Positions 3,701 to 60,236 of a stretch of DNA of 64,000 nucleotides are shown piece after piece. The notes beneath the pieces are model-generated. The model worked only from the letters and a program-made list of their open reading frames with translations. It made no database searches and had not been told where the DNA came from. Source of the DNA: a virus. The position numbers were made by a program, and so were the translations under genes. Each line of letters opens with the position of its first letter. Position 1 is the first letter of the stretch. The DNA is taken from positions 1 to 64,000 of IMG/VR virus record IMGVR_UViG_3300041407_000075. The stretch is one strand, 5' to 3'.

Positions 3701-4239
3701 TGTCAGTTTATAGTGATGTCCGAGCGAGTATCCGTAAAGGTGCTCTAGCAGCTCTTTCAGAATTTACAAACCCACAAGTGATTTTCAGTCACGGAAATGG
3801 CGCAGAACCTGCTGAGAGTTATGTTGTTGTAAATATCCTTAATGTTGAACAACAAGGTCACCATAATACTTCCACCTTAGCCAACGCTAATGAAACATTG
3901 ACGTTTCAAGTAGCTTATGAAGTGATGGTTCAGTTTAGTTTTGTAGGTAGCCTAAGTGGGGATATGTCCCAAAGCTTCACACAGAATATTAATAACAACC
4001 CACTGACTCGTTTAGAGTTACAAAGAAATAAACTAGGGTTGATGAGGAAAAGCCAGATTCGTAGGGCACCTCAGAAAAGAGATACCAAATGGGTTGAGTA
4101 TCATAATCTTGATGTAACATTTAACTACATCGTTATTACTGACCAACTTGTTGACGTTGTTGAAGGCGTAGTCATTGCTGATGAGGCTTCAGAGATTCCA
4201 GTAATTATAAAAATTCCAGAAAGTATCATTTATCCGTAG
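3700..4239 (+). CDS. tail terminator / neck protein
   Basis: Immediately upstream of sheath gene; overlapping stop/start. Confidence 0.55.
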   Translation: MSVYSDVRASIRKGALAALSEFTNPQVIFSHGNGAEPAESYVVVNILNVEQQGHHNTSTLANANETLTFQVAYEVMVQFSFVGSLSGDMSQSFTQNINNNPLTRLELQRNKLGLMRKSQIRRAPQKRDTKWVEYHNLDVTFNYIVITDQLVDVVEGVVIADEASEIPVIIKIPESIIYP

Positions 4240-4271
4240 CAAAGGCTACATAACAAAGGATCACAATACCT

Positions 4272-5555
4272 ATGTCCGATTTGGATGATGTAGTTTCGGT
4301 TGTTATTACCGACCAGACCACTGCTATTGCTACGGCTAGCTTCGCAATTCCCCTTATCCTTGCTACGTTTACTAATTTTGCTGAACGTGCCCGTACCTAC
4401 CTGAATATCACTGAAGTTGGGGGTGATTTCGCTACTACTAGTAATGTTTACATTATGGCTAGCAAGGCTTTTGGCCAAGATTCTGTAATTGGTGCCCCAC
4501 CACCATCCATCGTTGTTGGGCGTCGTCAAGTTGATAGTGTAGTATTTACCCCCACCGTTGCTGATAGCACTGCTTACACTGTTACTCTGAATGATGTGGC
4601 TTACACTTTCACCTCTGGTGTTGGTGCTACAGCCACGACTATTGTAACTGGTCTGAAAGCTGCCATTGGTACACCAACCGGTATTACGGTTGGTGGTACA
4701 ACTACCCTGACTCTGGCAGCTACTGTACCCGGTACAGCTTGGAGTGTTCTGACCTCGGTAAACCTTGTTGGTGTAAACACAGCCACTGAAACTTGGCCTG
4801 CTGCTCTTCTTGCCGTTGATGCTGATAATGACATCTGGTATGAACTGACTGCTGAAACTCAAGTAGTTGCTGAACAAGAAGCTCTGTCCGATACCATTCA
4901 AGCAATGGATAAGATCTACGGTCTGTCCTCTGCTGACGTTGTTGCACCTACTACTGGCATCACAGATATTGGCTACAAACTTAATGCTAAATCTGCTGGT
5001 CGTACCTTTGGTGTATGGTCTGCAACTGCTGCAACTGAATTCCCTGAGCTTGCTTGGTCTGGTAGTCAGTTGGCTGTAACTCCGGGCTCTAACGACTGGG
5101 ACTTTAAGCGTGCTGTAGGCGTTACTCGTAGCATCCTTAGCTCGACACAGATTGTCAACTTGCGTGCTAAATCGTGGAACTTCTTCCGCCGTAAGGGGGG
5201 TGTTGATGTCTTCCAAGACGGTAACATGTTTGATGCAAAACCGATAGACATCCAAATTTCTAAGGACTGGTTGAAAGCCCGTCTTCAGGAAGGCATCTAT
5301 TTCCGGATCATCAACAGCCTTAAAATTCCAATGACCGACCCCGGCCTTTTGATTGTAGAGAATGAAATTCGCTCTGTACTCTCCTTAGCTGAAAGCAACG
5401 GTATGATTGATTCTGGATGGACCGTGCAAACGCCCCCAGTATTGTCGATCCCTGCAACTCTTCGTGCGCAACGCGCTGCTGGTGTATTTGTTATCCGTGC
5501 TCGTCTGCAAGGTGCAATTCGCAGCGTTGCAATCCAATTTTACCTCAGCGTATAA
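4272..5555 (+). CDS. contractile tail sheath protein (DUF3383-type)
   Basis: 427 aa; PGSNDWDFK, DWLKARLQE, KIPMTDPG, ARLQGAI motifs. Confidence 0.85.
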   Translation: MSDLDDVVSVVITDQTTAIATASFAIPLILATFTNFAERARTYLNITEVGGDFATTSNVYIMASKAFGQDSVIGAPPPSIVVGRRQVDSVVFTPTVADSTAYTVTLNDVAYTFTSGVGATATTIVTGLKAAIGTPTGITVGGTTTLTLAATVPGTAWSVLTSVNLVGVNTATETWPAALLAVDADNDIWYELTAETQVVAEQEALSDTIQAMDKIYGLSSADVVAPTTGITDIGYKLNAKSAGRTFGVWSATAATEFPELAWSGSQLAVTPGSNDWDFKRAVGVTRSILSSTQIVNLRAKSWNFFRRKGGVDVFQDGNMFDAKPIDIQISKDWLKARLQEGIYFRIINSLKIPMTDPGLLIVENEIRSVLSLAESNGMIDSGWTVQTPPVLSIPATLRAQRAAGVFVIRARLQGAIRSVAIQFYLSV

Positions 5556-5571
5556 TCCGGGAGATTATTAA

Positions 5572-6105
5572 ATGGCTTCTAATTTTATTGGCAACTATTC
5601 CCCGGATGATTTTACAATTGTAATTTCGAAAGGTGACTTCGTTCACACTGTTTCTGGTTTTGCTGACGGTACTTTCGTTTCAATGAATCGTTTGGTTCCG
5701 AGTTCCACGCCATATCAGGGTGTAGGTAAGTCGAACTCCTTTGGTCGTGTGAAGCGTAGCGTAACTGGTATGACTGTTGATGTTACTTTGCATCAATATT
5801 CTCCATCTAACACTGTGTTGCAACAACTGCAAATTGCAGATGCTAATACTCCAGACAATACTTGGGTGTTTTCTGTAACCATTAAAGATTTGAGTGGGCA
5901 AACTGTAGCGTCGTCTAACAGTGCAATCATTGCTGCCCCACCAACTGTAGAGTTTAGTTCTGAAACTTCTACTCGCGCTTGGCAAGTGTATCTCTTCGGT
6001 AGTGACTTGTTTGTTGGCGGTAATATGCCACTAAGTCCTTCTGAAGTAGCCGCTGTTGAGGCTGCTGGTGGTGAAGTTGATAGTCGCTGGCGCTTGAATC
6101 CTTAA
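5572..6105 (+). CDS. tail tube protein
   Basis: After sheath gene; YSPDD, GFADGTFV, TLHQYSPSN motifs. Confidence 0.8.
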   Translation: MASNFIGNYSPDDFTIVISKGDFVHTVSGFADGTFVSMNRLVPSSTPYQGVGKSNSFGRVKRSVTGMTVDVTLHQYSPSNTVLQQLQIADANTPDNTWVFSVTIKDLSGQTVASSNSAIIAAPPTVEFSSETSTRAWQVYLFGSDLFVGGNMPLSPSEVAAVEAAGGEVDSRWRLNP

Positions 6106-6157
6106 TTGGTATTAGGGGAAAGGGATAAACCAATCCCCTATAATTTAAGGAGATAAT

Positions 6158-6655
6158 ATGGCACTCGCTAACTATTCACCAGACTCAGTAAATTGTCTAG
6201 CCTTTGGTATCCCACTAAACGGTTTTGCAGATGGAACATTTATCACAGTAACTAAAGATAAAGTTCCATACGGTTCTACAGAAACAGCAGATGGCTCTAT
6301 TTCCAGACTTTATACAAACAGTCAGACATACACCATCTCGTTGACGTTTCACCGTGGCTCTACATCTAATGATATTCTTACTAAGCTGTGGCAGCTAGAT
6401 GAGTTTACGCAGATGGGTAAATTCCCCTTGTTTGTAAAAGATTTATCTGGCACAGACCTTTTCTTTTCAACTAACACTTGGATTGAAGGTATCCCTAGCA
6501 TGGTTCAGAGCACTAACTTTGACACACGTACTTGGATTCTTCGTTCCTCACAAGCAGTTATCAATGTTGGTAGCAACCAAGATGCTAGTGGTATTCTGCA
6601 AGATTTGATTAATTTGGCGTCTGGTGCAGCTTCAATTGCAGAAGGAGTGTTGTAA
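6158..6655 (+). CDS. tail tube-like protein (paralogue 2)
   Basis: NYSPDS, GFADGTFI and KDLSG shared with tube protein. Confidence 0.7.
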   Translation: MALANYSPDSVNCLAFGIPLNGFADGTFITVTKDKVPYGSTETADGSISRLYTNSQTYTISLTFHRGSTSNDILTKLWQLDEFTQMGKFPLFVKDLSGTDLFFSTNTWIEGIPSMVQSTNFDTRTWILRSSQAVINVGSNQDASGILQDLINLASGAASIAEGVL

Positions 6656-7149
6656 TGGCTAACTCCTTTACTGTGAATACATACAGCCCCAAGGACGTAA
6701 TATTAACTGTTGGTGGTTATCAACTAACTGGTTGGCAGAGTATCAATATTAGTAGGACAGTAAAGGGGTTTACTCCTATTCGCGGCATCCGTGGCAAGAA
6801 CACACGAGTTCCGAACGTAGACACTTCAGCTACAATTACCATCTCCCTTCTTCAGACATCTCAAGGTAACGATGTACTTTCGTATATCCATGAACTTGAT
6901 TTAAATGAAGGCACTGGACGAATTGCTTTGATGTTGAAAGATAACTCTGGGCGTAGTGTGTTTTCCTCTAATGAGGCATATATCACTGGGTATCCAACAG
7001 CAACGTTCTCAGGCCAGTTTGAATACCGTAATTGGGAGTTCTTCTTGCAGTCTACGAACGCTTATGTTGTGTCAGGTAATGCTAAACCTGCAACAGACCT
7101 ATTTGACAGGGCACTTAGTGAAGCTGGTAACTTCTTTGATAATCTTTAA
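6655..7149 (+). CDS. tail tube-like protein (paralogue 3)
   Basis: TYSPKD, LLQTSQGN and KDNSG motifs. Confidence 0.65.
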   Translation: MANSFTVNTYSPKDVILTVGGYQLTGWQSINISRTVKGFTPIRGIRGKNTRVPNVDTSATITISLLQTSQGNDVLSYIHELDLNEGTGRIALMLKDNSGRSVFSSNEAYITGYPTATFSGQFEYRNWEFFLQSTNAYVVSGNAKPATDLFDRALSEAGNFFDNL

Positions 7150-7171
7150 TTAATATTCTGAGATAAAATAA

Positions 7172-7492
7172 ATGGCAGCTCCAAAATTTGAAGTACTTGA
7201 ACAAACAACTATTACAGTTGACGATATTGAATACCTTGTAACGGCAATGCCTGCAACTAAAGGTTTGATGTTTATTGAAAAGCATCAGGCAGCTATTGAT
7301 GAAGGTAAGGCCGATCTTAGTCAGATGAAACAAATCATTTGTAACTATGTTTCCAAAGAGAACATGCAGATCACTGAAAAGTCTTTTGACGTATCTTTTG
7401 CTCGTCGTTATGCACACCTCAACAAGCTCTATAAAGAGGTGCTGAATTTTAACTTCGAAGAGCTTTTTCAGGCACCCGATTCAGAAGAGTAA
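7172..7492 (+). CDS. tail assembly chaperone (gpG-like)
   Basis: Between tube and tape measure genes; followed by an overlapping open -1 frame. Confidence 0.7.
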   Translation: MAAPKFEVLEQTTITVDDIEYLVTAMPATKGLMFIEKHQAAIDEGKADLSQMKQIICNYVSKENMQITEKSFDVSFARRYAHLNKLYKEVLNFNFEELFQAPDSEE

Positions 7493-26921: not shown

Positions 26922-27146
26922 TTAATCATAAACAGTCTCTCCTGTAACCTTGTTATTAAAATGACGCCTTACAACATATCCCCTGCCCAAACTCCAAACA
27001 GTACAGAGAATAGTTGTGGAAGTGGCAATCCCAACAGGGGTTGTAAAGAACATCAAACAACCCATCGTAATCAACCAACTCCCTACCATGCCTATTGTAG
27101 TGTTTGTGCAGGTTTCAATCAAGGATTGTTTCTTAGTTTGTTTCAT
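26922..27146 (-). CDS. small phage membrane protein
   Basis: MKQTKKQSLIE...SLGRGYVVRRHFN pattern with two TM segments. Confidence 0.6.
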   Translation of the reverse strand: MKQTKKQSLIETCTNTTIGMVGSWLITMGCLMFFTTPVGIATSTTILCTVWSLGRGYVVRRHFNNKVTGETVYD

Positions 27147-27682
27147 TTAATCTTACCTGTCAACACAAGTTCAAGTTCAGCTAATACGTTGAAAGCGGCG
27201 TGTGCCAAATGAACAATATTACTCTCTTCGTCAGTCCTGTTAATAGCTGCAACACCTTCAGCCTTTTGAATAAATCCTTTCACTCGATGGCGACTAGCAG
27301 CGGCAGAGAATTCAGTCTCAGGGTTTGGAAGACCTTTCCAGTCATGAGGCTTGTAGCCTTTGTTCTCTGCTGCCCATGTCATTACTTTTGCAACTTCATT
27401 GATAGCGTTAGGGAAGCCTGAGTCGAATAGGTCCATTTGGACTTTACCAACTTTACGTTCTTCTAGGATTGGTCGGGCAATAGAGTCTTGACTTACGCTC
27501 AATAGCTCAAGTTCATTTTCATAAAATGCTTCTGGCCCTGTCTCACCTTCAGCGCATATCTCGTAGTCACCGAACAGTGTGTTAGAAACTACATAACCAA
27601 TCCAACCTTCTGCAATAGAGGGTGTGTCACAGATAGCAATTACTTTGTCCCCGATTTTAAACTTCTTACTTACAATCGTCAT
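27143..27682 (-). CDS. dATP/dGTP diphosphohydrolase-like protein (DUF5664) with extra N-terminal domain
   Basis: GKVQMDL, EVAKVMT..A..KGY..DW, AAASRH, DEES..HLAHAAFN. Confidence 0.75.
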   Translation of the reverse strand: MTIVSKKFKIGDKVIAICDTPSIAEGWIGYVVSNTLFGDYEICAEGETGPEAFYENELELLSVSQDSIARPILEERKVGKVQMDLFDSGFPNAINEVAKVMTWAAENKGYKPHDWKGLPNPETEFSAAASRHRVKGFIQKAEGVAAINRTDEESNIVHLAHAAFNVLAELELVLTGKIK

Positions 27683-34934: not shown

Positions 34935-35429
34935 TCAGCCTACAGAATCAATTAAAGCCTTTGCTTCTTGGACAAAATATCTGTAGTCCAAATCCCAAGA
35001 AAAGTCCTTGATGTCGTTACATGGTTTCACATCCCAACTGGTGTCAATACCCATGCGTCTCCATTCACCACCTTCAGCCAATGGTGGCATCACCTTGATA
35101 AGTTTACCACCTTCTTTCGAAGGATAGTAGCGGCAAATGTTTTGTAGCTCAATTTCTTCGCCATCCCCCATAACCATCAAAAGCTTACTACTTCTTGGTA
35201 CTTTTGTCCTTAAACAAAAGTCATATTTGTCACGGTGTAGTCGAATAAAGTCTTCGTAGTCACCCATCTCCAAAAGATGATAGAGTGCAGCCATTGACAC
35301 AACCATGGATGACTGATTTTTTTGCCAACCGATTTTATCAAATGGCATTACTTCATATGCACCTTTTGTTTTTACTTTACCGGATGAAATCAAATCCCGG
35401 ATGATTTTTACTTCGTCTTCGTGGTCCAC
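34935..35429 (-). CDS. family-B DNA polymerase, C-terminal fragment
   Basis: GKVKTKGAYE (KxKG motif), DFCLRTKVPRSS, RYYPS, LDYRYF; GTG start with GGAG SD inside HNH gene. Confidence 0.8.
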   Translation of the reverse strand: MDHEDEVKIIRDLISSGKVKTKGAYEVMPFDKIGWQKNQSSMVVSMAALYHLLEMGDYEDFIRLHRDKYDFCLRTKVPRSSKLLMVMGDGEEIELQNICRYYPSKEGGKLIKVMPPLAEGGEWRRMGIDTSWDVKPCNDIKDFSWDLDYRYFVQEAKALIDSVG

Positions 35430-35932
35430 GAATCTCTTTCTCCATGGTCGTCGTCAAAATTATACTTTTCGTTAGCACTTTTCCTAGCTGCGGCTGCCAA
35501 TTCTACAGTATCAAAAGTACCAAGTCCAATCAATTTACCATTAATTTTGATTCGTGCTCTGTACCTACCACTACTCGACAAGTATACACCGTTGTACCCG
35601 GTTGTGTTATTTTCATTCTTCCCTCTATTTCTCATATTCTCTAGTGGTGTGGACAACCTAAGATTTTCAATTCTATTGTCTTGTTTATCACCATTAATGT
35701 GGTCAATACTTGGATTAGGGTACTCACCATGTGTAATATACCAAGCTAGTTTATGAGCTGAATACTTCTCCTCACCTACTGAAATTTCTAGGTAACCCCT
35801 TGAACTAGCATTACCTATTGTTTCACCCAATCTCCACATATGTGCAGGATGATCATTGAGAATCTTAGTTCTTGTGAATTCACCTGTCAATGGGTCATAA
35901 CTTACATAATTAATAAATTCTTCTAATTTCAC
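35408..35932 (-). mobile_element. HNH-AP2 homing endonuclease inserted in DNA polymerase gene
   Basis: YDPLTGEF, AHKLAW, IDHINGDKQDNRIENLR, NNTTGYNGV, LGTF; lies between the two polymerase fragments. Confidence 0.9.
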
Positions 35933-35934
35933 TT

Positions 35935-37647
35935 CTATTCCTTAATTGCAATATATGAATTGACATCGCGTATGAACATTGCTGAATAATCAAGACCTTC
36001 CATCTCAAGTTTAGTTTCTGTCTCCCACCAGTTAACCCATTTATCATCCTCCCCAATAAGGTCAGTATCAATAATATATTCAAAACCGTCTGTATTACAC
36101 ATTACAATCTGCACATTACAGTGATCAATCAACTTCTCCATGAGCATACATAGCGATAACTGTCCACCGATAGTAATACTCATTGTATACGCTGGGTCAT
36201 AAAGTGGGCTAAACTCGTTATTCGTTTCCCCGTACGAACCATTCAAAGCTAGTTTGAGTGCAGCGTTACCCGCTGAACCTTTTGCTGTCTTTGTGCGCTC
36301 GTCATATAGTGAAGCATTAACATCACAGAAAGTCGTACCTAAGTGTTTAGGATAAATCTGATTTGAAATCCCCATGTTTGGATAAAAAGATTTTACATCG
36401 AGCGAACGAATCTTTCTTTTCTCTGTACTTCTAATTGTACCTTGTTTGGCGCCGTGGATACCCCCCACACCGTAGTCATATCGAAACCCATTGATTACTA
36501 CGTTGAGAGTTTCTGCTACGTTCCAACACCAGTAATAGCTCTTTGCTCCTTTAGGGCTCTTAAGCTCTTTCTCTTCAATCCAACCCATCGGTTGCTCTTT
36601 CTTCAGTTCAACAAGTTGCTCTTCTTTTGGGTAGAAGGTTTTACTCCGAGTCCCTTTAAAATCATCGAAGTCATACTTTGTACAGTCAGCTTGATTACCA
36701 AGTTTCTTTTTCTTCACCACCATTTCAGCATACTTAGCAACATCCCCCAACTGATGTTCCATCAAATCACTGAACACACCCTTTGTCTCAGTAATAACCT
36801 GATCCTGAAACCATTTATGGACAGCTTGAAATTCAGGTCGGTCAAACTTAATGTAAGGAAATAGACAATCTTTAATGATGATCTTATCACGCTTCGTCTG
36901 CCGGATCTTTCGACCAAACTTAGTCACTTCATAACAACAACCCGGACTCACCTTCTCAAGCGTGCGAATAAACAATTCTTTACCAATCTTCGTGTCATTA
37001 AAATTGGTACAATCAAATCCGAATTGTTTTGTAAGATCACCCCGCAGTTTAAGATTTTCATAAGAATACCAGTAAAACTTTAGTGTCTCGCTAACGTCGT
37101 GTTTGTTGTATTTCAACAATACATCTTTTTCATGATCATTAAGAATCTTTCCAACAGGGAACGGTAAATCCTCAATATTAGGGGATCGCATGTTGTACTC
37201 AAGCATTTTTAGGGATGTAGCCCGAGCGTGGTTATCAAAATGGTGGATTTTAAACAAATCAACCTGTGGGATAATTACATCCTTTTCCTTAATTGCACTA
37301 CCAAACTTCTCATCTTTGCTTGAGTTGATCAACTTCATTGCTACATCATAAATTTGTTTTGCTGTTATCTTAAGTTTTTTATCTGTCCCATGAACAGCAC
37401 GAGCTTTCTCTAGAATGAAATGAAGAACTGGGTAATCGAAGTTCAGGTTGTTAAATCCAACAAAACGATGTCCAGCACTCTTTACCTTACGGAAGAAATC
37501 AAGAAGGTCTTCTACTTCATTTTTACGATCACTAATTTCAAAGGCTCGCATACCTTTGCCGTTTGAGTAGACAGCAGCGAACGTAAAGGTATTTGGATAA
37601 GTTTCGATATCAAAAATCCAGTCCCCCTCAAAGAATTTCTTTTCCAA
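35935..37647 (-). CDS. family-B DNA polymerase, N-terminal fragment (3'-5' exonuclease + palm)
   Basis: ExoI FDIET, ExoII GFNNLNFD, ExoIII YNKHD; motif A DVKSFYP, B KLALNGSYG, C NTDG. Confidence 0.9.
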   Translation of the reverse strand: MEKKFFEGDWIFDIETYPNTFTFAAVYSNGKGMRAFEISDRKNEVEDLLDFFRKVKSAGHRFVGFNNLNFDYPVLHFILEKARAVHGTDKKLKITAKQIYDVAMKLINSSKDEKFGSAIKEKDVIIPQVDLFKIHHFDNHARATSLKMLEYNMRSPNIEDLPFPVGKILNDHEKDVLLKYNKHDVSETLKFYWYSYENLKLRGDLTKQFGFDCTNFNDTKIGKELFIRTLEKVSPGCCYEVTKFGRKIRQTKRDKIIIKDCLFPYIKFDRPEFQAVHKWFQDQVITETKGVFSDLMEHQLGDVAKYAEMVVKKKKLGNQADCTKYDFDDFKGTRSKTFYPKEEQLVELKKEQPMGWIEEKELKSPKGAKSYYWCWNVAETLNVVINGFRYDYGVGGIHGAKQGTIRSTEKRKIRSLDVKSFYPNMGISNQIYPKHLGTTFCDVNASLYDERTKTAKGSAGNAALKLALNGSYGETNNEFSPLYDPAYTMSITIGGQLSLCMLMEKLIDHCNVQIVMCNTDGFEYIIDTDLIGEDDKWVNWWETETKLEMEGLDYSAMFIRDVNSYIAIKE

Positions 37648-55578: not shown

Positions 55579-56259
55579 ATGAAACAACTTAAATTTATTC
55601 ACGGTGTTGGTATCAACGATGCAGACTACCCTGTAACACAAAACAAAGTCGTTGATGGAAAACAAGTTCAGATTTGGATTTGTCCGTTTTATGCAAGGTG
55701 GCGGGCTATGTTCAAAAGGGCTTATTCCGAAGCTTACCAGTCTCTGTACACCACATATGTGGGTTGTTCGGTTTGTCCTGAATGGATTTACTTTACTAAT
55801 TTCAAAAGCTGGATGGAGACACAAGATTGGGAAGGTAAACAACTTGATAAAGATTTGTTGGTTAAAAGCAACAAGATTTATAGTCCTGAGACTTGCGTGT
55901 TTATTGAGCAGAAGATCAACAAATTCATGTCAGAAAAACCTAATAAGGTTCGAGAACTGCCTACAGGTGTTTCTTGGGATAAAAAGGCCAGCGCATATAG
56001 GGCTCAGTGTATCTCAGTCGAAACGGGCAAACAGACCAATCTAGGATGGTTTGATTCCCCCGATACGGCACACAAAGCATGGCTGGCTTTCAAGCTAGAG
56101 CAAGCACATGCACTGGCATTCACCCAATCAGATAAGCGTATCGCAAAAGCTTTGATTGAACGATACGAAAATTATTCAAAAATAGATGAGATAATTGTTG
56201 ACCATAGCCCTGAATTAACCTATTATTCACTTACTAAAGAGAATCAACAGAAGGAATAA
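55579..56259 (+). CDS. HNH-type homing endonuclease
   Basis: GVGINDADY, CPFYARW, GCSVCPEW..F.NFK.W, LDKDLL..NKIYSPETC, LPTGV. Confidence 0.85.
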   Translation: MKQLKFIHGVGINDADYPVTQNKVVDGKQVQIWICPFYARWRAMFKRAYSEAYQSLYTTYVGCSVCPEWIYFTNFKSWMETQDWEGKQLDKDLLVKSNKIYSPETCVFIEQKINKFMSEKPNKVRELPTGVSWDKKASAYRAQCISVETGKQTNLGWFDSPDTAHKAWLAFKLEQAHALAFTQSDKRIAKALIERYENYSKIDEIIVDHSPELTYYSLTKENQQKE

Positions 56260-56396
56260 AGAGATGAATTATTGCGAACGCTACACAGAATCCCAAGCAA
56301 TCGAATTGGTAGCAGAGTTGAAAGGTGAAGGCTACAAAGCCTACTTCACTAAGAACAATTCCGACTCTTTCACTGTTCAATATTGGAGCTAAGACT

Positions 56397-56608
56397 ATGT
56401 TTACCACTATCTTGTACGTATCGCTTTGCTTCTCTAACGTTGACTGTGTAGCCTACGAACCACAAACGTGGAAAACTAATTCTTTAGCTGAACTGAACTG
56501 AACAAAGATATTGAAGCTTGTGCTAAAGAAGAACGTAAATACCTGTCTAATGTTATTGGAACGTATAAAGAATCTGACTGCTACGTAGTAGAAAATAAAT
56601 CAAAATAA
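56397..56608 (+). pseudogene. small exported-type protein gene interrupted by a 5-bp duplication
   Basis: CTGAA x3 at 56488-56502 gives TGA at 56499; removing one unit restores a 68-aa ORF with 4 Cys and a hydrophobic N-terminus. Confidence 0.6.
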
Positions 56609-56611
56609 TGT

Positions 56612-56640
56612 TTGCAAAAGCTTTGTACAAGGTCTAGAAT
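56612..56640 (+). promoter_or_regulatory. sigma70 promoter
   Basis: TTGCAA-17bp-TAGAAT with A-rich upstream element. Confidence 0.65.
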
Positions 56641-56675
56641 TACCTTAATGAAACAAACATACAGGGGCTCAGAAA

Positions 56676-56924
56676 ATGACCATTCAAACCAAAGACTTCT
56701 CCTACTTCGATCAAGGTCTGTTCACTATGTTCATTCCTAACACTAAAGAGGCTGAACAGGCTTGGAATGAAATGGCTTCGACCACTGATGGTACTGGCAA
56801 GGTGCCAACTGTACAGGCTAAGCAGTTTATTTATCAACTGAAGAAAGCAGGTTATACAGTATCAAAAGGTAAGAAGCCTTCTATCTCGATTGATGACATT
56901 CTTCTTGACGAACTGTTCAACTAA
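56676..56924 (+). CDS. hypothetical early protein
   Basis: Follows promoter; biased codons. Confidence 0.65.
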   Translation: MTIQTKDFSYFDQGLFTMFIPNTKEAEQAWNEMASTTDGTGKVPTVQAKQFIYQLKKAGYTVSKGKKPSISIDDILLDELFN

Positions 56925-57106
56925 GGAATACAGCCATGATCATCTCCCTGATAGCTTTCTACAAAATCTTCCTTCAAGACAGCCAACCAACTAAAAATAA
57001 GCCTATATACCACAAGACGTGGAAAGACGAAGTGGAAGGCTATCCAGCGTCTAGCTATGCTAAGAGCTTGGAGATGGTTGTTCATTAATTTATTGCAGCC
57101 CATTCT

Positions 57107-57160
57107 TACCCTGGTTGCCTGGATAAGAAGATGAACCAGGATGCCTAGGCAACCAGGGTA
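57107..57160. repeat. perfect 14-bp inverted repeat
   Basis: TACCCTGGTTGCCT (57107-57120) / AGGCAACCAGGGTA (57147-57160), 26-nt spacer. Confidence 0.9.
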
Positions 57161-57205
57161 CACCTACCAGGGTGAAAATATCTTTATTTTCTTTTGAAAA
57201 TTCTC

Positions 57206-57233
57206 TTGACCTGTCCCACCAGGGTGCTACACT
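57206..57233 (+). promoter_or_regulatory. sigma70 promoter with CCAGG in the spacer
   Basis: TTGACC-16bp-TACACT with extended -10 TG; AT-rich upstream element. Confidence 0.7.
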
Positions 57234-57288
57234 ACAGACATGAAAGGGAAGAAGTGGAATCCTCCACACCCTCTCCAGGAGATTCAAA

Positions 57289-57837
57289 ATGTCGAATGTA
57301 GCCGTTTCTTTCGCCTCCCTGGTTAAATCCAACAACGGTATGTTCAAGTCTGAAGCTCAGGCTAAATTCCTTCTGTCTCAATGCCAGGAAGAAAACACCT
57401 TTGTTTGCGGCGGCAACGTCTACAACAACTCTTTCACAATTTTCTACATCTGTGACTCCCTGGGTGTTGTTAAGGTTGAAAAATACCTTCCTAAATCCGG
57501 TAAAACTACCACTACCTGGGAACGTCTGACTGCTGATCAATTCCAAGCAAGCCAGGAAGCTAAAGCGACCTCTAAAGCTCGTGACATCGCTTTGCAAGAA
57601 GCCTCGGTTGCTAAGTGGCAAGTCCGCCAGGACGCATTCAACAATGCGCTGGCAGTGGCAAAGTCTTACATTAAACAAGTTATGATTGAAACTGGTTGCC
57701 CTGAAGCAACTGCTCAACGTGCTGTTGATAGCATCATGAACAACCAGGACGACATTAACAACAGCATGGAAACCCTGGTTAAATCTTCTGAGTTTGTTAA
57801 AGCCTGGGAGGTATACAACAACGAACCAGGAGTGTAA
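57289..57837 (+). CDS. hypothetical early protein carrying 10 CCWGG sites
   Basis: 182 aa; own promoter, SD AGGAG and terminator; high-expression codon usage. Confidence 0.85.
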   Translation: MSNVAVSFASLVKSNNGMFKSEAQAKFLLSQCQEENTFVCGGNVYNNSFTIFYICDSLGVVKVEKYLPKSGKTTTTWERLTADQFQASQEAKATSKARDIALQEASVAKWQVRQDAFNNALAVAKSYIKQVMIETGCPEATAQRAVDSIMNNQDDINNSMETLVKSSEFVKAWEVYNNEPGV

Positions 57838-57858
57838 AAGCTTCCTGAAGAGTCCTAG

Positions 57859-57878
57859 AAGCCCCGTGAGGGGCTTTA
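57859..57878 (+). terminator. intrinsic terminator
   Basis: AAGCCCC-GTGA-GGGGCTT-T. Confidence 0.7.
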
Positions 57879-57966
57879 ATTGTTTATAGGGTATGAGAAT
57901 GTCTATTCCAGGTAAATTAACCTTCCAGGGGCTACCAGGGACAGTGAACAATTTAAAAGAAATACC

Positions 57967-57995
57967 TTTACCTGGTAATTTTCAAAGTCTATAAT
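57967..57995 (+). promoter_or_regulatory. sigma70 promoter with CCTGG overlapping the -35 box
   Basis: TTTACC-17bp-TATAAT. Confidence 0.7.
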
Positions 57996-58021
57996 CTATA
58001 AACAAACCAGGAGCAGACACC

Positions 58022-58186
58022 ATGAATTATGAAGAAAAGCCCATCATCATCCCTTTCCTTAAAGTGATCAATGGTATTCAATTAGTGATGTGGGACTACT
58101 CAGAGCGTGCTGAGATCTATGAGCAGTTTATTATGATGAGCGAGGACTATGCTGAGTACACGCCAGTCCGATTCGAAGCTTTGTGA
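58022..58186 (+). CDS. hypothetical protein (54 aa)
   Basis: SD AGGAG overlapping CCAGG; MNYEEKPIII...FEAL*. Confidence 0.55.
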   Translation: MNYEEKPIIIPFLKVINGIQLVMWDYSERAEIYEQFIMMSEDYAEYTPVRFEAL

Positions 58187-58267
58187 GAATGGATGGATAC
58201 AGGCAAAGCCTGAATATCCTGTTAGGTTTGAGAAGCTTTAATTAATTACGCTCGGAGTATAATAGAG

Positions 58268-58456
58268 ATGACTAATAAAGAATTTGACACTTGGTTTTCT
58301 TCATTGACTGACACAGATAAACTGAAGATACTCAGTGAGCAGTGTCAAAGTATCACTTCGATGAAAGGAGACACTTATGTGACTTTCGGTTGCAAATGGA
58401 ACTTAGATTCATTCATTTATCAAGTGATGTATGAGGAGAAAACAGGAAGAGAGTAA
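58268..58456 (+). CDS. hypothetical protein
   Basis: SD GGAG; last rightward gene before the non-coding gap. Confidence 0.55.
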   Translation: MTNKEFDTWFSSLTDTDKLKILSEQCQSITSMKGDTYVTFGCKWNLDSFIYQVMYEEKTGRE

Positions 58457-59157
58457 GATATGCACTAATGCATAAATAATCAATCTAGCAGGGAATTATA
58501 AGCCACTCAAATGAGTGGCTTAATGTTATCAAGAGTATTAATACAACACCTTCCAAGTATCCTTTCTGTTGATACTAACAAATCCCCTCAAAGCCTTGTC
58601 CAATCTAGTCTTAATGACTACACAAACTACACTCATTAGTCTACTTTCTAGGCATGTACAGTATTATCTAAGTAGTCTCATATGTTAAGCCTGATACCAT
58701 TTCCCTCCAACTTTCCTCCTGCACCAATTCCTTTCCACCCATCCTAACCACCATCTCTTAGCAATTTATTGCGTATCCTTTCACACAATCCTCATAATAC
58801 ATTGACATAAGCTAGTGAAGTGTGCTAGTTGTGCAACATAGATTATTATGGTTGACATATGTGGTCTGTTCAGGGTGACTAGGTGTTTAGAGTAGTTGCT
58901 CCATTGAACATAACGTTAAAATCTATGCACACCAAGCAAGCTATCTTGTTACATCCACCTGTCAGAGTTTATGTCAAGGGTAATATCTTCAGAGGTATTG
59001 ACCAGATGATTGGGCAGGTAGTTGGCATGATCTTTGTTGCAATATTTTGTTATTTAAGAATGATTCGTATTGGGTGAGTCCTTAAGGCGTTAAGCTAATC
59101 TGATACCGCGCCAGTGTTTTCAAGGCTTTCAGACCTATTCCATATTTTCTTACAGAC

Positions 59158-59179
59158 AAAAGAAACCCTCCGAAGAGGG
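59158..59179 (-). terminator. intrinsic terminator
   Basis: Minus strand CCCTC-TTCG-GAGGG followed by TTTCTTTT. Confidence 0.8.
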
Positions 59180-59201
59180 CTGTAGTTAATTTTACAGGGG
59201 A

Positions 59202-60194
59202 TTAGATATTTCTCACACCACCATGTTCTTCAAAGATATGAATCACAGGTTCTAAATTTGAGGGGAAGGTAGTCTCAGTATACCCATCAGGCATTTCCTC
59301 TTTAGTGATTACCTTTGTAGTTAGGTTATTCAGACAATACCTTTCAGCATCTCTACAGTCTTTAACTGTTGGATAAGTCCAGACACCATAATTTATAACA
59401 TCATAAATTGATAGCTGGTTCTGACGTTTAATCCTTTCAGTTGATAGATTTGCAATACCAAACTTAATAGCAACTACATCTTCTTTATCCATTAGAAGAT
59501 TAATATAGGTTTCTTGTTGTCTATTACCACTACAAGCACAAGACCTAACACCCTTATACAAACCCACTAAATGTCCTTCACCTAATTCACCACAGTCAGG
59601 ACAATCCATGTACCAGTATTTCTTATGTCCGTGTTTATCAACTCTTTCACTTCTGGTAAATACTGTACCATCAGCATAACATCCAGTGTCCATAAACATT
59701 TTAATCATTACAGAGTCATCTTTTCTTTTGTAGTCTCCCATCCTCAAAGCAAAGCATCCCGCACAACCTTTGTATCCACCTTTGATAAGAAAGAAACTGA
59801 TTGTCATAGAAAAGAAATCTCCGTGGTCTGGACACTCCGCTACCACTTTAGTTTTGTTGGCTGTAGTGAAATCACCATGCCAACCTTTAAAGATTAAACC
59901 TCTTTCCACACAAGCTCTATTAACCCTTACTACATACTGCTCTTTAGACCAATTGCACTTATCTGTACATCCGCATGGAATACAACCTCTGTTTAGATGG
60001 CCTTTACTCATTGCAAACAACCCCTCACCAAATAGTTCAGGGTCTTCTTTGCATACAGAGCACTCTACAATATACTTCTTATCGTTAGCATACTTACCAT
60101 TCCAGCCTACAACCGTTAAGTTTCCAAATACTGTTCCTTCAAACCCATCATATTTCATTACCCCATCTTCAATCAAGTCTTTCAAACTAGCCAT
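59202..60194 (-). CDS. putative homing endonuclease: Zn-ribbon repeats plus C-terminal GIY-YIG-like domain
   Basis: CSVC, PCGC, CPDHG, CPDC; TYINLL..IKFGIA..RIK..AE..DGYTET. Confidence 0.65.
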   Translation of the reverse strand: MASLKDLIEDGVMKYDGFEGTVFGNLTVVGWNGKYANDKKYIVECSVCKEDPELFGEGLFAMSKGHLNRGCIPCGCTDKCNWSKEQYVVRVNRACVERGLIFKGWHGDFTTANKTKVVAECPDHGDFFSMTISFFLIKGGYKGCAGCFALRMGDYKRKDDSVMIKMFMDTGCYADGTVFTRSERVDKHGHKKYWYMDCPDCGELGEGHLVGLYKGVRSCACSGNRQQETYINLLMDKEDVVAIKFGIANLSTERIKRQNQLSIYDVINYGVWTYPTVKDCRDAERYCLNNLTTKVITKEEMPDGYTETTFPSNLEPVIHIFEEHGGVRNI

Positions 60195-60236
60195 ACGCAC
60201 TCAACTTAAATTATCTCTATTATACTCCGACCGTAA

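Follow-up and report, generated by a model that had tools for sequence, protein, structure and literature searches.

The phage genome in IMG/VR record IMGVR_UViG_3300041407_000075 (hereafter G000; 90,162 bp, 40.9% GC), whose source DNA is a rhizosphere metagenome, carries an island of CCWGG sites (W being A or T) over a single 182-aa gene and its flanks, in a genome that is otherwise purged of this word. The island lies within the window analysed here, which is the first 64 kb of the record. The feature is real, statistically extreme, conserved in relatives, selected at the level of codons and sharply bounded by the edges of a small cassette, and it points to some use of a defence-read word on this one gene.

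The window holds 29 CCWGG sites, 22 of them in the island at 57110-58011 (site starts 57110-58007) and seven elsewhere. A preliminary description of the window, made from its letters alone, had placed seven of the 22 sites upstream of, ten inside and five downstream of the 182-aa gene (57289-57837), and our recount agrees; the seven sites that it had noticed outside the island, in a list not meant to be exhaustive, proved to be the complete set. In 100 dinucleotide-preserving shuffles the window contained a mean of 84.1 sites (standard deviation 8.9) and all 100 gave at least 29, which corresponds to a depletion of about 3-fold overall and about 12-fold once the island is set aside. In the whole genome we counted 31 sites where 92.8 (mononucleotide) or 86.7 (Markov) are expected, and only nine of the 31 are spread over the 89 kb outside the island, so that a purge of about 10-fold surrounds a local excess of about 20-fold. 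Roughly 1.2 sites are expected per 902 bp, and the Poisson tail for at least 22 is 10^-19.9. When all 5-mer classes were compared, the local density of CCWGG was 71 times its own genome density, whereas the runner-up word had just three copies, and the 5-mer scan statistic gave a -log10 P of 27.0 for CCWGG versus 8.3 for the next word. The sliding 5-mer count that the preliminary description had called for thus finds a single extreme local cluster genome-wide, and the shuffles, the 5-mer ranking and the Poisson tail together rule out chance or base composition as the origin of the island.

The earlier claim that the sites share only the pentamer holds largely, with a weak preference for A before and for G or A after CCAGG, but not entirely, as several sites lie within short repeats: a perfect 14-nt inverted repeat (57107-57120/57147-57160) and direct repeats of 12-13 nt. 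Not all 22 sites are therefore independent. Because only such short repeats are present, tandem amplification is ruled out as the origin of the island, as had been stated from the outset, and repeat analysis found no iteron-like family in the island besides the pentamer. Nor is the island an assembly artefact, since a source-run contig of 1871 nt covers 56326-58196 with 0 differences and the island was found again in three other assemblies.

Within the 182-aa gene, CCWGG is spelled at 10 of the 15 positions where synonymous codons permit it, while 106 other likely genes of G000 (19,814 codons) use 4 of 895 such positions. Drawing codons from genome usage yielded a mean of 1.84 sites and a maximum of 9 in 20,000 draws. 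The gene has atypical codons of the highly expressed type (AAC for 13 of 15 Asn, CTG for 6 of 9 Leu), and when its own synonymous codons were shuffled the mean rose to 3.99, with ten sites reached once in 20,000 shuffles. Unusual codon usage thus accounts for about four of the ten in-gene sites and no more, and the local excess stays beyond both nulls in this codon-shuffle check. The choice of codon also depends on what follows it. Ahead of CTG or CAG, an NNC codon is used in 7 of 11 cases where G starts the next codon and in 0 of 8 with another base there (Fisher p 0.0066), a trend that is reversed genome-wide and that stands at 4.7% versus 7.2% in the long open reading frames (ORFs) of a relative that is not purged (G004, below). 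By codon phase, the sites occupy 7 of 11, 2 of 3 and 1 of 1 possible positions, and both orientations occur; the presence of all three phases and both orientations fits a DNA word and argues against a codon effect or an explanation based on the ribosome frame. The neighbouring genes use 0/8, 0/4, 0/3, 0/0 and 0/3 of their possible positions, which makes the edges of the island sharp. A by-product of codon usage or codon pairs alone is ruled out by the two codon nulls and the next-codon dependence, and we conclude that the CCWGG island has been selected at the level of the word and did not arise by chance.

We compared five IMG/VR genomes, fetched whole (G001-G005), which with G000 form a clade of six mosaic genomes; the 182-aa protein is among the few proteins common to all six, and is 53-76% identical among them versus 40-55% for the major capsid protein. 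An island sits on the orthologous gene in three of the five relatives (G001, G003 and G004), and the flank sites turn over, as the preliminary description had suggested checking. G001 has 23 CCWGG sites, 18 in an 851-bp island on the orthologue and five outside. G003 has 21, of which five lie outside and 16 fall within 1.58 kb, where the orthologue holds eight, its stop one and two upstream genes the remaining seven. As fractions of possible positions, these two upstream genes realise 2/5 and 5/8, the next gene 0/5 and the orthologue 8/19, and every other ORF of the G003 locus table is without a realised site. G004 is the only unpurged genome of the six (133 sites versus 121-137 expected), the orthologue having eight sites and the gene upstream of it four; shuffling the orthologue's own codons gives 2.8, and eight were reached in 13 of 20,000 shuffles. 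At the other extreme stand G002, with one CCWGG in 104 kb, and G005, with none in 88 kb, in both of which the orthologue is without a site. At the positions of the in-gene sites of G000, G002 has synonymous codons that destroy CCWGG, in many cases by two base differences, and most of its lost sites differ by two changes, which are not products of deamination. G002 and G005 thus appear to have recoded the island away, and no island of another word was found near the orthologue of G002. CCWGG is the top clustered 5-mer in G000, G001 and G003 (-log10 P of 27, 23 and 20, with the next word below 9), and its clustering is not prominent in G002, G004 and G005.

Most of the cassette is 85-100% identical between G000 and G001, and 16 sites occupy the same alignment columns. 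Upstream of about 57160 the two genomes are unrelated (33-42% identity), yet they have four and two sites there, one in the same column. The G003 and G004 proteins are 90% identical. Across these two pairs, only about 0.5-0.57 of codons at conserved residues are identical (0.56 for G000 and G003), and 8 of the 10 in-gene positions of G000 are kept in G003. The earlier view of a deliberately maintained element is borne out by the synonymous choice of the word, by its recurrence in three of five relatives and by the turnover of flank sites in non-homologous DNA. Farther away, 25 more distant homologue loci showed no consistent CCWGG enrichment, the exception being one lineage with four sites that was sampled in three loci.

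Some further clusters were seen in the relatives. G003 (83304-83942; locus L053 3304-3942) and G004 (66265-66594) have a second small gene packed with CCWGG, encoding 120 aa, Cys-rich and of no family. Of its possible sites, G003 uses 5 of 8 and G004 uses 4 of 7, and the gene is without a homologue in G000, G001, G002, G005 or elsewhere in IMG/VR. In G001 (locus L001), eight of the nine TCGAA words of a 10.5-kb locus fall in the 900 bp upstream of and overlapping the island (4136-5036), and 9 of 24 CTAG words in 900 bp downstream of it (6400-7300).

Of the words tested, CCWGG alone was strongly depleted; CCSGG, 16 other 5-mers and the 4-mer palindromes came out near expectation. The purge is found in five of the six clade genomes and in the cultured Pseudomonas phage vB_PsaM_M1 (Ounavirinae), which has 20 sites against 84-93 expected (4-5-fold purged) and no island, and which is not among the tblastn matches listed for the 182-aa gene. 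Among the six, the unpurged G004 alone carries a C5 cytosine methylase (PF00145, E 1.1e-35), which lies in the replication module beside a primase-helicase and a family-A polymerase, with no restriction enzyme next to it. This enzyme is short and generic, scoring 23.8 bits on the Dcm subfamily model, where the cut-off is 710, and the CCWGG sites of G004 show no preference for overlap with GpC. The coincidence of a methylase with relief from the purge fits restriction that is blocked by cytosine methylation, as a single case. In G000, a crude motif scan and Pfam turned up a Dam-class N6-adenine methylase but no C5 enzyme, and a comparison of gene presence and absence across the six genomes gave no candidate reader of CCWGG. 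The adenine methylase lies outside the window (G000 70588-71304, minus strand; locus L066 6588-7304), is of the D12 class (PF02086, E 8e-11) and does not appear among the tabulated matches to the five relatives; in G000, GATC shows a mild depletion (observed/expected 0.65).

G004 also raises a purely historical explanation, in which the cassette was shaped in methylase-protected relatives of this kind, was imported and has so far escaped the purge. In those relatives, where the word was harmless, its frequency would have been raised by strong codon optimisation, GC-rich hairpins and perhaps the bias of very-short-patch repair (Vsr), a possible source of word enrichment. The cassette is exchangeable and shared mosaically, its gene has codons of the highly expressed type, and the early 10 kb of G004 hold 36 CCWGG sites versus 11.4 expected, a 3-fold excess. 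However, codon usage alone would give about 4 of 15 sites and not 10, the orthologue in unpurged G004 still exceeds its own shuffles, G003 has kept most of the in-gene positions of G000 despite the low codon identity, 12 sites lie in the roughly 390 non-coding bases of the cassette, and G002 shows that the gene is freely recodable. The own-codon shuffles and the tests of next-codon dependence weaken this explanation most, and we regard it as unlikely.

The island coincides with what its sequence indicates is an insulated, exchangeable cassette of terminator, promoter, gene, terminator and promoter (57089-58027, plus strand, as are all its parts), set between a 50-aa ORF that ends at 57088 and a 54-aa ORF that starts at 58022. 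A 3063-nt contig from another rhizosphere metagenome aligns as far as 57088, resumes at 58028 and carries 436 different letters in between, and further contigs join the flanks of the cassette in other ways. At its upstream end, a 16-bp hairpin containing the perfect inverted repeat is followed by a small hairpin and a T-rich run (57107-57160). The minimum free energy of this segment is -37.5 kcal/mol (z -3.82; none of 200 shuffles was as stable), sites 57110, 57118 and 57153 are in its arms and 57136 in its loop, and it is probably the terminator of the upstream operon. A sigma-70-like promoter follows (P1, 57206-57233; TTGACC, 16 nt, TACACT, with TG before the -10; 9 of 12 consensus matches), whose spacer contains site 57219. 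The ribosome-binding site of the 182-aa gene, CCAGGAG (57275-57281, read from the sequence), includes site 57275 and precedes the ATG at 57289. Behind this gene, which belongs to phrog_2274 and carries ten sites, a pattern match identifies an intrinsic-terminator-like hairpin of eight pairs with a T-rich tail and without a site (57858-57877). The spacer from this terminator to the second promoter holds three sites (57908, 57925 and 57935; 57908-57939). That promoter is again sigma-70-like (P2, 57967-57995; TTTACC, 17 nt, TATAAT; 10 of 12), with site 57971 overlapping its -35 hexamer, and the last site of the island is part of a second CCAGGAG (58007-58013), the ribosome-binding site of the 54-aa gene (58022-58186, ATG 58022). 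The latter gene is 83% identical in G001, has no match in G002-G005 and offers no possible CCWGG position. Pattern matches recover the same order of terminator, promoter, gene, terminator and promoter in G003, with flanks that are without sites. A 239-aa antisense ORF (57232-57951) was rejected as an overlapping gene, as it is open only in G000 and has 2-7 stops in the other five orthologues.

Sites in both ribosome-binding sites raise the question of whether the word is read in RNA. On this account, a CCWGG-reading ribonuclease or RNA-binding factor would inactivate messages that bear the word, and the other genes would escape by being wordless. CCWGG is a classic restriction-modification word, and we know of no ribonuclease with this specificity, which counts against the idea. 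So do the relief of the purge in a genome bearing a methylase, which points to DNA, and the occurrence of sites upstream of P1 and in promoter DNA. In its favour are the gene-specific placement of sites in G003, the word in both ribosome-binding sites, the upstream sites within the 3' hairpin of the preceding transcript, and a precedent in phage T4, where RegB cuts intergenic GGAG words that are mostly ribosome-binding sites (PMC1702504). The GGAG ahead of T4 nrdC.8 is moderately cut by RegB (PMC1702504). We think such a shut-off tag rather improbable. A structured RNA built of CCUGG:CCAGG pairs was rejected: only one site pair (57774 with 57826) is stably paired in the predicted message, whose fold has a z of -3.09 on only 20 shuffles, and Rfam gave no match at E <= 1 in 56900-59300.

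We tentatively propose that the array acts in cis and that, on being read by CCWGG-specific host enzymes, it gates an immediate-early gene, a reading we hold to be possible and short of probable. The enriched word is the purged word and the purge tracks a DNA methylase, and on these grounds we take the island to be read in its DNA form. The positively selected CCWGG array covers what looks like one insulated, monocistronic, early cassette driven by host promoters, in a lineage that otherwise purges the word. We infer that the purge may be caused by restriction, and that the readers of the island may be the same host enzymes that lie behind it, a C5 methylase and/or its restriction partner. Occupancy or methylation of sites on both promoters, on both ribosome-binding-site sequences and in the gene body would gate expression, and the cassette would report the modification status of the present or previous host. 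In other words, of the three functions put forward in the preliminary description (decoy, sensor and regulator of the embedded gene, or packaging or ejection signal), the sensor and regulator would fit the layout best.

Several points weigh against cis gating by host enzymes. Neither G003 nor G004 has sites in the promoters or flanks of the gene, which means that the conserved part is the gene-body sites, and to our knowledge no control by gene-body methylation exists in bacteria. If a cutting enzyme is behind the purge, 22 sites should be costly, and the island is hard to explain unless its carriers seldom meet such an enzyme. Stray sites outside the island number 5-9 in G000, G001 and G003 versus 0-1 in the island-free G002 and G005, and carriers may thus be under weaker restriction. 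The correlation with a methylase has n=1, and that enzyme matches only the generic C5-methylase superfamily model. Independent lineages are also few, G000 and G001 being alike and G003 and G004 being alike; in the protein tree the relevant node is a polytomy, such that gain and loss are not separated, and a single change is compatible with it on weak support (65/45).

The array could instead serve as a sink. Either in cis or once replication has taken place, it would absorb a defence enzyme specific for CCWGG, or the methylase of that enzyme, and thereby spare the rest of the genome. The word of the island is the word that the lineage purges, and in the non-coding flanks density outweighs exact position, as the comparison of G000 with G001 upstream of about 57160 illustrates. 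Nevertheless, a site bound by a restriction enzyme also gets cut, and just nine sites are left elsewhere to protect. In G003, moreover, a gene inside the island region realises none of its five positions and the flanks of the orthologue are site-free, and a bulk sink would not skip them. Full-text searching found no description of a DNA decoy for restriction enzymes in phages, and we consider this function improbable. The sites on two promoters and two ribosome-binding sites, the insulated unit and the skipped gene in G003 argue for a role directed at the gene over a bulk sink.

A looser formulation treats the purged word as an address label, by which a CCWGG-reading activity is aimed at one or two insulated immediate-early genes; we would not count on it. 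The activity could belong to host or phage and act on DNA or RNA, the target could be switched off, marked or sacrificed, and the other genes would escape wordless, details that we hold just as loosely. The variant in which the label is a cis-encoded DNA bait for a defence enzyme seems to us similarly doubtful.

The reader could also be the phage's own, possibly the product of the 182-aa gene, which would bind host CCWGG for shut-off; phage DNA, being nearly free of the word, would be spared, and the island would provide negative feedback on the reader's own gene. This protein matches phrog_2274 (E 3.3e-13, residues 8-119), tblastn detects a distant likeness to NrdC.8 of T4-like phages (about 32% identity over residues 10-139), and the protein database assigns PF26901 to all 27 homologues. 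No match was found in the Pfam copy searched, NCBIfam, PADLOC or Atlas, and the literature mentioning nrdC.8 gives no function. An AlphaFold2 model (mean predicted local distance difference test score, pLDDT, 89.7) predicts an N-terminal alpha/beta domain of two helices and four strands, a 53-residue helix and a helical C-terminus. Foldseek gave no match to this model in the PDB at E <= 0.001, VIA fold comparison reached Z <= 5.8 in the helical half only, and none of these matches was informative or to a DNA-binding fold. Retention of the protein in all six mosaic genomes, with better conservation than the capsid protein, is in keeping with a reader, as the predicted architecture may be. G002 and G005, however, keep the protein with a gene that has no sites, the protein is slightly acidic (isoelectric point 5.3) and without a DNA-binding fold match, and G004 tolerates 133 sites; we judge a phage-encoded reader very unlikely.

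Least probable of all, in our view, is that the island is a packaging, terminus, origin or recombination signal. It does lie near a 745-bp non-coding gap (58457-59201) at a convergent gene boundary, and the gene in G003 seems to have a comparable gap behind it. Against this, it would require a coincidence for such a signal to use the purged word, G002 and G005 are without the island, and some 28 kb separate it from the terminase and portal genes as read from large ORFs (85682-88722). No ends or depth step are seen in the source-run contigs, though assembled contigs cannot reveal ends. Neither do E. coli Chi octamers flank the island, none being found nearby. The window has seven of them, all on the plus strand and none on the minus strand (1183, 6064, 17994, 18006, 22533, 41531 and 45036), with about 0.5 per strand expected by an estimate from composition; this excess may be a codon effect, because related TGGTGG words are common on coding strands.

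The surroundings of the cassette have features of their own. About 100 bp of the long gap (58736-58835) are conserved in contigs of three other plant or rhizosphere metagenomes, at a depth of up to about 520x, with promoter-like TTGACA boxes inside and surrounding DNA that is not conserved. Directly after the gap is a 332-aa endonuclease (59202-60200, minus strand; phrog_681) with two CapR homology domains, and vB_PsaM_M1 has three 999-bp genes annotated 'endonuclease'. A 226-aa ORF 0.8 kb upstream of the island (55579-56259, plus strand) has a weak AP2-domain match (E 0.0069, below the cut-off) and is probably, from its sequence, a free-standing homing endonuclease; it has a homologue in all five relatives at 30-51% identity, and G001 has a similar ORF of 219 aa immediately downstream of its island (locus L001, about 5964-6623).

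PHROG matches in G000 include a major head protein, tail sheath, tape measure, ribonucleotide reductase, DNA polymerase and primase-helicase. By its tail sheath, the closest cultured relative is vB_PsaM_M1, at 49.9% identity. The Pseudomonas host of that phage and a polyhydroxyalkanoate (PHA)-depolymerase-like hydrolase, whose nearest bacterial clusters are Pseudomonadota, are hints only as to the host, and a host search found no relative of the 182-aa gene among 185,579 species genomes. The family-B polymerase of G000 (34935-37647, minus strand) is split over ORFs of 570 aa and 164 aa with a 174-aa ORF between them, and G001 and G002 match both pieces. A 179-aa protein (27143-27682, minus strand) has a dATP/dGTP diphosphohydrolase N-terminal domain (PF18909, E 2e-17) of a type known from diaminopurine-genome phages.

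How does the island compare with what is known? Its background is ordinary restriction-site avoidance, of which phage T7 and CCWGG are a known case. The likeness lies in the genome-wide loss of a palindromic word at synonymous positions, 10-fold in G000 and near-total in G002 and G005; avoidance explains this background but not an island about 20-fold above expectation. Clusters of a methylase word that serve as signals are known for GATC, namely those of P1 pac, oriC and the Mu mom promoter, where the methylation state is read. Here too a short methylase word is dense over a functional element (22 sites in 902 bp), but those clusters are Dam sites, a handful and non-coding, whereas the island is of Dcm/EcoRII type, with 22 copies of which ten are in coding sequence. 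Morons, the autonomous inserts of promoter, gene and terminator in phage genomes, resemble the cassette in its own promoter and terminator (pattern matches), its presence or absence between conserved neighbours and its atypical composition, but the oddity here is one 5-letter word at synonymous sites and not a foreign base composition. Vertebrate CpG islands likewise retain, near promoters, a methylatable word that is depleted genome-wide. Theirs, however, is retained at about the expected frequency against a mutational depletion, while the island is about 20-fold above it and the losses in G002 are mostly not those of deamination.

Two systems resemble the island in where sites fall. In BF23 and T5, sites matter only within the first-entering terminal repeats (the first-step-transfer DNA) and the rest of the genome may keep them (PMC10644984). 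The shared element is that the position of a site relative to the early programme decides its importance; G000 is the inverse, with nearly the whole genome cleared and one early gene packed. The early-injected regions of T7-like phages would be a further case of such dependence on position. RegB and GGAG of T4 share with the island a short word on the ribosome-binding sites of early genes, which in T4 marks them for shut-off (PMC1702504). RegB differs in that it acts on RNA and reads a 4-letter word that is unpurged, and our analysis turned up no nuclease of this type for CCWGG. A term search of Rusinov et al. 2018 (PMC6286503), on restriction-site avoidance in virulent phages, gave no occurrence of 'cluster', 'CCWGG', 'EcoRII' or 'orphan', and within the collection of papers covered by our full-text searches no phage was described as having an island of a restriction word that it avoids.

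Site avoidance is the textbook footprint of restriction, and codon-level enrichment of the avoided word on one insulated early gene is the opposite footprint. If host CCWGG enzymes do read the island, phages would be using the epigenetic or defence machinery of the host as a regulatory input; a role as decoy or shut-off tag would make the island a timing or counter-defence device of a new kind; and if it were an address label, a word-based logic of self and non-self would have been turned into gene regulation. That it represents something categorically new we think doubtful. Set beside these known systems, the island is a variant on site avoidance and on the clusters of methylase sites that are used as signals.

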